Position numbers and translations under genes: made by a program. From a virus (lineage: Duplodnaviria; Caudoviricetes): DNA of 64,000 nt. The notes under the pieces are model-generated. The model was not told the origin of the DNA and ran no database searches. It saw only the letters and a list, made by a program, of their open reading frames with translations. The DNA lies in IMG/VR virus record IMGVR_UViG_3300033066_000778, positions 64,001 through 128,000 of that record, one strand, 5' to 3'. Positions 49,760-60,574 of the stretch are shown piece by piece (the first letter of the stretch is position 1; each line of letters begins with the position of its first letter).

Positions 49760-50024
49760 GACTCAAATAATAGATATTAGCACATTGTTTAGAACAGAAG
49801 TATAGTCTACCCGAAGCATCACGTAAATGTCGTAAAGTATCAGGAATCCAGTAATTCTTAACCAAGGAAGTTTTAACCGTCATCTTAATACTGTAATTAC
49901 AACCGAACTTGGAGCAGGTTAAACAACTATACTCCCTTACCTTCCCTTTTCGGGGAACGCTGTAATGAGTGGTTGTTATCGTTTCGGTTTTATAATCCGT
50001 AATCATGTGAAAAGGTCTAGTCAT
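49752..50024 (-). CDS. Zn-finger array member 1
   Basis: CLTC...FCSKQCANIYYL. Confidence 0.8.
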   Translation of the reverse strand: MTRPFHMITDYKTETITTTHYSVPRKGKVREYSCLTCSKFGCNYSIKMTVKTSLVKNYWIPDTLRHLRDASGRLYFCSKQCANIYYLSHA

Positions 50025-50195
50025 CGCTCATAAATATATACCTGGGATTGTTAGTATTCCAGGTTTTTTTGTTTTTATCCTTTTAGCCCCTTGCTGCCCC
50101 CGAAGACCCCATACGCCCATTAACCCCTTTAATTACTTTTATATATCGCTTTTTAACTTGATTTCTAAAAACGACTCGTTAGGGGAAATGACCCG

Positions 50196-50226
50196 TTGAC
50201 ATCTGGGCATAGGGGGTAGCTAATTC
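50196..50226 (+). promoter_or_regulatory. Candidate rightward (early) promoter
   Basis: Perfect TTGACA at 50196-50201; -10 box poorly resolved within TAGCTAATT. Confidence 0.4.
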
Positions 50227-50230
50227 ATTG

Positions 50231-50787
50231 TCCCGGCGAACCGGGAGAGCAAGGGGCAGGTGTAGGTCACGGGCGGTTGAGAGGCCGTCTAGGGCTGACC
50301 CTGCCCAACACTGGCTCGCGCCACGATGAGGCGACAATCGTAGGCGCAGGATGTGTGTGTAAGTAAACCATCCGCCAGAACCCCCTTCCCAACATTGGAG
50401 GGGACTCTCTCTTCGCGGAGGTTAACAATCCGCGTAGTGACCCTAGCACAGATAGCGCCGGTATGGACTCACCGAACACCGTATGGTGAGGAAGTATCGG
50501 AGGTGACTAAAGGTAGTGTAAAGGTAGCACCTTACACTAGCGGTTCGTGGGGACTCCGAAACCCCAAATAACAAAAGGTTTTCTTTTTCAATGTCCTATC
50601 ACCCGATGGGGCGGTTAAGAACGCAGTGGTTTCAAGACCACAGTGTCATGCGTTCGACCATTGGGTGATAGGCTCACTCCAGGTAGCGTAACACAGCGAC
50701 GCCGTGCGATGGCGGGGGGACATAGACTAGCGACCTATGTCCCCTTTGTTGCGACGGGAGGATGGGACGAAACAGAGTTCGCCTGTA
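50231..50787 (+). ncRNA. Large multi-domain structured RNA of unknown class
   Basis: About 10 consecutive stems and junctions, e.g. tcccgg/ccggga, gggcagg/cctgccc, cctatcacccgatgg/ccattgggtgatagg, ggggacatag/ctatgtcccc; no credible ORF. Confidence 0.65.
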
Positions 50788-50818
50788 TGGCTTTGAAAAG
50801 CCACTGATGAGTCCCGTC
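50761..50818 (+). ncRNA. Hammerhead ribozyme, type II; predicted cleavage after A50787
   Basis: gatgggac-GAAA-cag..ctg-TA/tggctt-tgaa-aagcca-CTGATGA-gtcccgtc; complete core and three stems. Confidence 0.9.
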
Positions 50819-50845
50819 ATCAGACTGAAACGCAAGGAGGTTCCC

Positions 50846-51274
50846 ATGCGGAACCGCGCTTCCCTCATTGACCTGAACATCCTCGTGTCCTCCATCCCCG
50901 TGTCCGCCCCCGAGACCCGGCAGGGCCGGGTCTTCGCCGCCGCCTGGGCGAAGGCGGACGCGGCCTGCGTGGCGAGGCTGAAGGCGCGGCGGGCCGAGAT
51001 CTCCGCCGCGTGGGCGGAGAAGGAGCGGGCTGAGAAGAAGGAGCGGATCGCCGCCATCCAGGCGGCGAAGGACCGCGCTGAGGCGCGGCGGGCCGAGGCC
51101 CGGAAGGTCGGGGCGGCCCGGCTGCTGAAGGCCGAGATGGAGAGGCAGGAGGCACTCGCCCGCATCGAGGCGGGCGGGCTGCTCGATGCCATGAAGGGCA
51201 AGATCTCGGAGCCGGACGGCATCCGGCTCACCAAGGAGTTGGCGGACATGTTCGCCGCCTTCGGGGAGATCTGA
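50846..51274 (+). CDS. Ala/Arg/Glu-rich helical protein, first rightward gene
   Basis: AGGAGG RBS at 50835; very GC-rich codons. Confidence 0.8.
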   Translation: MRNRASLIDLNILVSSIPVSAPETRQGRVFAAAWAKADAACVARLKARRAEISAAWAEKERAEKKERIAAIQAAKDRAEARRAEARKVGAARLLKAEMERQEALARIEAGGLLDAMKGKISEPDGIRLTKELADMFAAFGEI

Positions 51275-60340: not shown

Positions 60341-60574
60341 ATGGACACATACATCTACACGCCACAAAACGGAAAGCTTACAAGAGTAACAGCACCAATT
60401 GAACGATACTTTATATTGTTCTACGAGAATGATGCTGATATCTCAGATCCTCAAGTAGCATTTAAATTAGCACAGAAAAGCTTTTATACTGCTGGTGCTT
60501 TCTCCTCTCTTATTGATGAAGCACTGATGAACGATCACATCGTCGTCATCAGAAAGTTAGCTGTAACACCGTAG
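60341..60574 (+). CDS. Hypothetical protein
   Basis: AGGAG RBS before MDTY. Confidence 0.7.
   Translation: MDTYIYTPQNGKLTRVTAPIERYFILFYENDADISDPQVAFKLAQKSFYTAGAFSSLIDEALMNDHIVVIRKLAVTP

Follow-up and report, generated by a model that had tools for sequence, protein, structure and literature searches.

A short strand immediately downstream of a complete type II hammerhead ribozyme can fold back onto the catalytic core and close a 7-bp hairpin that excludes the active fold, and among phage ribozymes of the same type this core-complement helix is under selection for RNA pairing. The ribozyme lies between a long structured leader and the first gene of a phage operon. What might a ribozyme gain from a helix that disables it? 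We tentatively propose that, at this locus, the hairpin is a selected off-state helix that would release the cleaved products and lock them apart, a reading that seems to us quite possible, if short of probable.

The locus lies in the window, by which we mean the whole 64,000-nt stretch of DNA that was analysed, namely bases 64001-128000 of the 153,958-base IMG/VR virus record of an uncultured phage (~154 kb). The window has ~40% G+C, with an island richer in G+C at ~50.2-53.6 kb, and the ribozyme and its hairpin sit inside a gap between minus-strand genes, which stop at 50024, and plus-strand genes, which start at 50846. The ribozyme is preceded by a GC-rich structured leader RNA of ~530 nt (50231-50760, plus strand), which is supported by its fold z-score and by its identity with a related contig, L124. 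The z-score of 50200-50850, which covers the leader and the ribozyme region, is -6.7, and Rfam returned no family for the leader at the gathering level or in E-value mode. From its position, the ribozyme would detach this leader from the mRNA. The Shine-Dalgarno sequence AAGGAGG (50834-40) follows downstream of the ribozyme, and the ATG at 50846 starts the first ORF, which encodes an Ala/Arg-rich protein of 142 aa and is followed by a MYG1-family gene (Pfam E = 1e-74). Folding places AAGGAGG and the AUG within a small hairpin (50831-50850, plus strand). We noted that L124 differs from the window at four places in this hairpin (G32A, C33T, deletion of A34 and C45T) and nevertheless retains a 6-bp Shine-Dalgarno/AUG hairpin in a shifted register, which hints that translational masking just 3′ of the ribozyme is conserved. 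At the opposite end of the leader (50162-50231), similarity to L124 begins ~35 nt 5′ of TTGACA (50196-50201), and GCTAAT/TAATTC is located 17-19 nt after this hexamer; a consensus scan called no promoter there. The region around TTGACA is likely to be the start region of the leader transcript.

The hammerhead itself was recognised at 50761-50818, on the plus strand, both by reading the sequence and by a descriptor scan, and it is the sole credible hammerhead that the scan found in the whole 154-kb record. The motif runs, in order, through GGAUGGGAC (50760-68), GAAA (50769-72) and a stem III consisting of CAG/CUG plus the A50772-U50786 pair. The 5′ strand of stem II, GAUGGGAC (50761-50768), is supported by sequence, energy evaluation and the descriptor scan; its core of 5 bp, formed by GGGAC (50764-68), is extended by U63.G16, A62-U17 and G61-C18, giving 8 pairs by the scan. 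Core nucleotides G12 A13 A14 (50769-71) plus A15.1 (50769-50772 in all; sequence and descriptor scan) lead into the stem III hairpin (50772-50786; sequence and energy evaluation), in which ACAG and CUGU form 4 bp around the loop AGUUCGC. According to the hammerhead consensus, cleavage is predicted after A17 (50787) of a GUA triplet, between 50787 and 50788 and directly before the stem I hairpin (50788-50803; sequence and fold), a 6-bp helix of UGGCUU and AAGCCA with the loop UGAA, which would form the extreme 5′ end of the downstream mRNA. Then follow the core nucleotides C3 U4 G5 A6 U7 G8 A9 (50804-50810), which are also the 5′ arm of the off-state hairpin, and the 3′ strand of stem II, GUCCCGUC (50811-50818), of which 50811-16 is the off-state hairpin loop. 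The invariant core is complete, with CUGAUGA at 50804-10, GAAA at 50769-72, the A50772-U50786 pair, A50787 (H17 not G) and the G50811-C50768 pair. Stem I (6 bp) and stem III (4 bp) are closed by loops and stem II (5-8 bp) is open, as in permutation II, and the active fold evaluates to -21.5/-22.7 kcal/mol.

At the Rfam gathering level, no hammerhead was reported at the locus, the type II model RF02276 included, and E-value mode kept a single 15-bit alignment to type III. This alignment would read the ribozyme through a downstream GAC-U-GAAAC (50823-31), and we ruled it out: its 15 bits compare with a threshold of 48.5, an extra U separates stem II from G12, and stem III would have 3 bp. Four phage type II loci tested against Rfam also gave no gathering-level match, and the L043 hammerhead scored 28.8 against a threshold of 37 in E-value mode. 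The RF02276 consensus has a 2-bp stem II and the tail GcAGCCaAAg, and holds no core-complementary strand. The missed threshold is a property of the seed of the model and not of the ribozyme class. As a separate observation, an upstream hairpin loop, UUUCAA (50639-50650), complements loop I of the hammerhead, UUGAAA (50792-50798), over 6 bp; this is probably due to chance, since 4 bp are left in L124.

The anti-core hairpin (50804-50823, plus strand) is evident in the sequence, in the predicted folds and in its recurrence across the class. It is a perfect 7-bp inverted repeat, in which CTGATGA (50804-50810) and TCATCAG (50817-50823) enclose the 6-nt loop GTCCCG (50811-50816). The first-pass annotation had described 50817-50823 as a perfect complement of the catalytic CUGAUGA and had argued that the hairpin excludes the active fold because its loop is the stem II strand; the sequence bears out both the complement (7/7) and the exclusion, because GUCCCG serves as hairpin loop in one fold and as stem II 3′ strand in the other, and U50817 and C50818 are common to the hairpin and the stem II extension. 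The 5′ half of the ribozyme has its own alternative structure, a 9-bp hairpin of AUGGG.CGAA with UUCGCCUGU (50762-50786, plus strand), which is found in the MFE structure of the 5′ product as well as in that of 50755-50850. The stem II 5′ strand and the core GAA are thereby sequestered, and this hairpin is the off-state partner of the anti-core hairpin, which is itself contained in the RNAfold MFE structures of both 50755-50850 and the 3′ product.

The subclass to which we compared this hairpin is defined by an uninterrupted run of at least six nucleotides, located no further than ~22 nt 3′ of stem II, that complements CUGANG(A), and the strand at 50817-23 matches at 7/7. The usual architecture of the subclass comprises a 4-bp stem II, GGAC/GUCC, with the complement beginning at the last stem II base, so that a 6-bp stem closes a loop of 4-6 nt. 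Here, stem II is GGGAC/GUCCC plus three pairs and the complement lies 6 nt past the core. The register is atypical, with an 8-nt spacing on the 6-bp count, a 7th A-U pair and a long stem II, and the locus may not share the function of the common CAUCAG class. A second CTGATGA/TCATCAG pair, at 60524-60552 of the window, has no GAAA core and no stems and is apparently coding, and we attribute it to chance.

The predicted energies place the two states in close balance. Over 50755-50830, the active fold with its 8-bp stem II evaluates to -22.7 kcal/mol and the off fold, which combines the alternative hairpin at 50762-86, stem I and the anti-core hairpin, to -23.3 kcal/mol, so that the two are nearly isoenergetic within a nearest-neighbour model that leaves out tertiary contacts. 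In the ensemble of the same segment, P(stem II) is 0.62 and P(hairpin) is 0.37, and in the full 651-nt context stem II is present in the MFE structure. When the transcript is folded as it grows, the 5′ half is predicted to enter the alternative hairpin while the 3′ strand of stem II is still missing. When position 50818 is reached, the MFE structure changes to one with stem II and then, at 50828, to the off fold; findpath puts the barrier that separates the active and off states at 13 kcal/mol. It had been suggested that the ribozyme cleaves only before 50823 is made. This is unlikely, because the competitor strand is complete 5 nt past stem II, far too short an interval for a seconds-to-minutes reaction, and because, by prediction, the alternative hairpin already engages the 5′ half when the stem II 3′ strand has yet to be transcribed. 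The other suggestion of the first-pass annotation, a product-release device, fits the locus: the stem II duplex alone is evaluated at -12.3 kcal/mol, and the net binding of the products after refolding is predicted to be -3.7 kcal/mol. For the 3′ product, the predicted fold is stem I followed by the anti-core hairpin, with an energy of -22 kcal/mol and a z-score of -3.0.

Can the conservation of the hairpin be followed in close relatives? The locus had no match among GenBank phages. A search of viral contigs based on MYG1 found no relative of the locus, and the MYG1-homolog contigs L121-L123 have no hammerhead and no similarity to the leader. Specific hammerhead patterns had no match in the viral contigs, where no other GGGAC/GUCCC ribozyme was found, and a metagenome scan for GGGAC/GUCCC yielded four unrelated ribozymes, all of them without an anti-core strand. 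The sole relative found was L124, a 1.2-kb JGI contig reached through an 85%-identical 142-aa ORF. Its leader is 95% identical, and the DNA 5′ of the promoter-like TTGACA diverges; its ribozyme and hairpin are identical to those of the window except for one base of loop III (A50776G), which makes it too close to test hairpin conservation. Comparison of the two leaders also revealed a hairpin, GGGGGGACATAG-ACTAGCGAC-CTATGTCCCC at window positions 50714-50744, whose 9-nt loop (50726-50734) is carried by L124 as the exact reverse complement (GTCGCTAGT), a hairpin-loop inversion between leaders that are 95% identical. In the 167-kb Logan contig L122 (6001-8372), a MYG1 homolog (52% identity) is directly followed by a gene with PolyA_pol plus HD domains (CCA-adding type), which suggests that MYG1 and PolyA_pol/HD form an RNA-end-processing gene pair in large phages.

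The evidence for selection comes from the wider class. A generic pattern for type II hammerheads, restricted to those with a GAC/GUC stem II, matched more than 119 viral loci, and the class surveys comprised at least 98 unique ribozymes in a first set and at least 279, including non-U7 cores, in a second. Among the 98 listed, CATCAG was the top 6-mer in the 20 nt past stem II (19 ribozymes, compared with 0.74 in shuffled tails), commoner there than any Shine-Dalgarno word, and 25 of the 98 had a clean core/tail hairpin of 5-7 bp with a loop of 3, 4, 5 or 6 nt. The matched complement, as an exact 6-mer, occurred no more than 22 nt downstream of stem II in 32 of the 279 listed; among these matches it was absent from the 22 nt upstream and from the next 22 nt downstream, and it did not occur as the reversed word. 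These 32 ribozymes have 30 distinct stem I sequences, and the anti-core ribozymes among the matches listed sit upstream of at least 16 unrelated proteins. Depending on the survey, between about a tenth and a quarter of the similar phage ribozymes among the matches listed have the device.

Position N7 is the one free position of the hammerhead core. Among the 279 ribozymes listed, U7 cores are accompanied by CAUCAG in 24 cases and by CGUCAG in one (a U.G wobble), and C7 cores by CGUCAG in eight cases and by CAUCAG in none (Fisher p = 6.5e-7). Two of the contigs listed each carry one U7/A and one C7/G ribozyme, and an independent 4x4 scan for CTGANGAGTCCNTCAG gave, among the full-descriptor matches listed, U-A 34 times, U.G once, U-U twice, C-G six times and the remaining combinations never. 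In L026, a 7-bp helix includes a U.G pair, which is workable at the RNA level on the plus strand alone; the 7th pair of our locus occurs in none of the 32 exact-6-mer survey cases listed. Because the tail base covaries with core N7, the core-complement helix is, judged from these comparisons, under selection for RNA pairing at the class level. Complementarity to the core is maintained in evolution, as N7 covariation shows for the class as a whole. The C7 covariation may come from few events, since RNAs of 50 nt give no reliable tree from which to count them.

No cultured phage with an anti-core hammerhead was found in the search. Streptomyces phage Wentworth (L344; MH019216.1, 56672-56726) carries an unannotated type II hammerhead of the same subclass between genes 84 and 83, without the anti-core strand, which would make it a handy control system. 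Matches in Bcep781 and Axy10 proved to be terminator-like hairpins. Further, many of the hammerheads listed among viral loci L002-L120 have, by eye, A-G immediately before GAC, commonly in the form UAAG, UAGG or UGAG, and the stop codon of the upstream gene may be built into the edge of the ribozyme. The palindrome CTGACGAGTCCGTCAG recurs within a strongly conserved context of ~100 nt in L245, L248, L253, L258, L259, L274 and more than 15 other IMG/VR loci; these loci lack a GAAA arm and were rejected as hammerheads, and they form one sequence family, possibly coding.

How would the hairpin act at our locus? We envisage a bistable type II hammerhead between the ~530-nt structured leader and the first gene of the phage operon. 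In the on state, stem II would be formed by GUCCCGUC (50811-18) and GAUGGGAC (50761-68), leaving the core free. In the off state, UCAUCAG (50817-23) would pair with the core CUGAUGA, the stem II 3′ strand would become a loop and the 5′ half would be held in the 9-bp hairpin at 50762-86. After the predicted cut at 50787/50788, which in a type II hammerhead should yield a 2′,3′-cyclic phosphate and a 5′-OH, each product alone could take its off-state hairpin; the tight 8-bp stem II complex would then dissociate and could not re-form, so that neither religation nor re-association would take place. The mRNA would be left with a 5′-OH at the base of two abutting hairpins, stem I and the anti-core hairpin, 10 nt 5′ of the Shine-Dalgarno sequence; this structuring of the 5′ end might itself be a selected effect, and the stability of the mRNA might be affected. 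We favour product release and locking at this locus because of its long stem II and the matching alternative hairpin in the 5′ product. Release cannot be the general reason for the hairpin, because the products of the common subclass, with a 4-bp stem II, would dissociate unaided. Irrespective of which effect was selected, the helix physically must reduce the share of active molecules ahead of cleavage and, once the cut is made, trap the 3′ product.

The main rival to the proposed product lock places the role of the hairpin before cleavage, either as a throttle that keeps most molecules inactive and cleavage slow, and so acts as a timer for how many transcripts stay joined relative to those that are separated, or as a switch opened by temperature, a protein or a 30S subunit that loads on the Shine-Dalgarno sequence 10 nt downstream. 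For our locus, we regard this as conceivable and somewhat unlikely. Its best evidence lies in the common CAUCAG subclass, where stem II has only 4 bp among the matches listed and the hairpin is predicted to outcompete it ~50-fold: the median P(stem II) among the matches listed is 0.016 with the hairpin and 0.85 in ribozymes without it. There, the C after GUC belongs to both helices: like a shared base in the expression platform of a riboswitch, it can pair either with a G of stem II or with G8 in the core. Hairpin dominance before cleavage points to attenuation in this subclass, according to the model, and in the common 4-bp class throttling or gating before cleavage may be what the hairpin mainly does. 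The junctions of one phage can also differ in hairpin presence (L113/L005, L032, L014), as would be expected of junction-specific tuning, and the end of the hairpin falls near the edge of the ribosome footprint, ~18 nt before the start codon in the class (matches listed) and 23 nt at our locus. However, hairpin presence shows no correlation with stem II length or start-codon distance among the matches listed; the latter (median ~25 nt) is equal with and without the hairpin (25.5 and 24 nt), and a switch gated by a ligand, protein or ribosome is a proposal whose gating factor is hypothetical. At the locus itself, early entry of the 5′ half into its off-state hairpin and the 13 kcal/mol barrier would suit a throttle, whereas the near equality of the two states, together with the presence of stem II in the 651-nt MFE structure, would not, and tertiary contacts outside the energy model may restore the active state.

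Could the complementarity at the locus instead be a matter of chance, in a ribozyme that does no more than cut the leader off the mRNA? The only close homolog, L124, is identical and so reveals no constraint on 50819-50823 in particular, the register is unlike that of the common CAUCAG class, and GGGAC/GUCCC ribozymes elsewhere (none in the viral contigs, four in metagenomes) lack the anti-core strand. Nevertheless, we consider chance improbable: a 7-mer complement of the core within 25 nt is expected in ~0.1% of shuffled tails (~0.85% for at least a 6-mer), a similar complement is clearly selected in related ribozymes, and both halves of the off state are present here in energetic balance with the active state. 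Still less probable, in our judgement, is that the tail serves the active fold through a loop I/3′-tail pseudoknot or another tertiary contact, with the core complement as a by-product. Most type II hammerheads do pair loop I with bases just 3′ of stem II (PMC3088659), UCA(G) at the locus could pair with UGA of loop I over 3 bp, extended to as many as 5 bp by the opening of two pairs in stem I, and some CAUCAG ribozymes (L043, L079) have a loop I complement directly after CAUCA. Yet the longest loop I/tail complement in the subclass equals that of shuffled tails (3.2 and 3.1; 3.4 and 3.4), loop I sequences are diverse among the CAUCAG ribozymes listed, and the tail base covaries with core N7 rather than with loop I. 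Finally, CTGATGA-N6-TCATCAG is a DNA palindrome, which might act as an operator for a dimeric protein or, since the consensus scan scores its minus strand as terminator-like, as a terminator of minus-strand transcription. We give hardly any credence to either function, because the genes on its right lie on the plus strand and leave no minus-strand gene to enter the palindrome, the T run of the minus strand amounts to only TGGCTTTTCA, the left arm in the class is fixed by the ribozyme with a spacing that varies from 3 to 6 nt, and the G.U pairs of L026 and L331 are possible solely in plus-strand RNA.

A broader speculation, which we think doubtful, is that a considerable share of the type II hammerheads of phages act as natural two-state devices, whose off helix joins the catalytic core to the nucleotides directly 3′ of stem II, so that processing of gene junctions is gated rather than constitutive. 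The gate might then be time, ribosome loading on the adjacent ribosome-binding site or another factor. At our locus the device would be present in reinforced form, its stem II of 8 bp matched by an off helix of 7 bp, and would also separate a large structured RNA from the mRNA. If this were true, phage hammerheads would be regulatory elements and not just cutters, and would offer a natural template for ribozyme switches. Apart from this wider speculation, a conserved helix that pairs with the core, together with N7 covariation, indicates that at least some phage hammerheads are built to switch off. This bears on the timing, separation and stabilisation of phage polycistronic RNAs and opens the function of phage hammerheads to direct tests. 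It also points to something missing from the Rfam type II model, and ribozyme insulators that inactivate themselves could be modelled on so compact a natural element.

The type II hammerheads of phages and prophages were described by Perreault et al. 2011 (PMC3088659), whose consensus includes a loop I/3′-tail pseudoknot, of at least 4 bp, in the majority. The role of many hammerheads in phage genomes has been open since then (PMC3088659) and is counted among the open questions of the field (PMC6155905). Our ribozyme resembles these hammerheads (PMC3088659; RF02276) in its fully matching core, its capped stems I and III and its open stem II; like most of those listed, it is intergenic and just upstream of a ribosome-binding site, and the job proposed for it is, as for them, the cutting of long phage transcripts into pieces. 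It differs from the usual phage type II ribozyme in its stem II, which has 5-8 bp instead of 4, in its short stem III and in following a 530-nt structured RNA instead of an ORF. It also has a core-complementary strand, which the published type II consensus and the Rfam model do not. A core-complementary tail is not described in PMC3088659, PMC6155905, PMC11300833 or PMC8782182, nor did full-text searches find it (subscription literature, e.g., Jimenez et al. 2011, lay outside their scope).

Self-cleaving RNAs of other replicons offer parallels for a competition between active and inactive folds. In viroid RNAs, stable non-hammerhead folds compete with the active ribozyme fold. Alternative pairings of the HDV ribozyme (PMC2396440) likewise engage essential nucleotides with nearby sequence, and the resulting inactive fold is in competition with the active fold, as here. 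Such flanking attenuators of HDV and viroids can also block further reaction after processing, which is what we propose for the phage element. However, these are replicating RNA genomes, in which the competitor lies in the genome rod or in upstream mRNA signals, whereas our locus has a dedicated local hairpin strand of 6-7 nt in the mRNA leader of a DNA phage, and the anti-core hairpin, unlike those competitors, recurs with covariation across many unrelated gene junctions. Among engineered elements, the synthetic insulator RiboJ, reportedly introduced by Lou et al. in 2012, consists of a hammerhead followed by an added hairpin before the ribosome-binding site. The order of ribozyme, hairpin and ribosome-binding site is the same in the phage element, and in both cleavage would remove the upstream RNA and leave a defined, structured 5′ end. 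In contrast, the hairpin of RiboJ is separate and is not known to pair with the core, whereas the natural element re-uses the core as one arm of the hairpin and so would also switch the ribozyme off. Finally, in having mutually exclusive helices that share nucleotides (U50817/C50818 here, the C after GUC in the common class), the element is like riboswitch expression platforms and engineered allosteric hammerheads (precedent in PMC3088659); unlike them, it has no evident aptamer or ligand, and cleavage itself may drive the switch.
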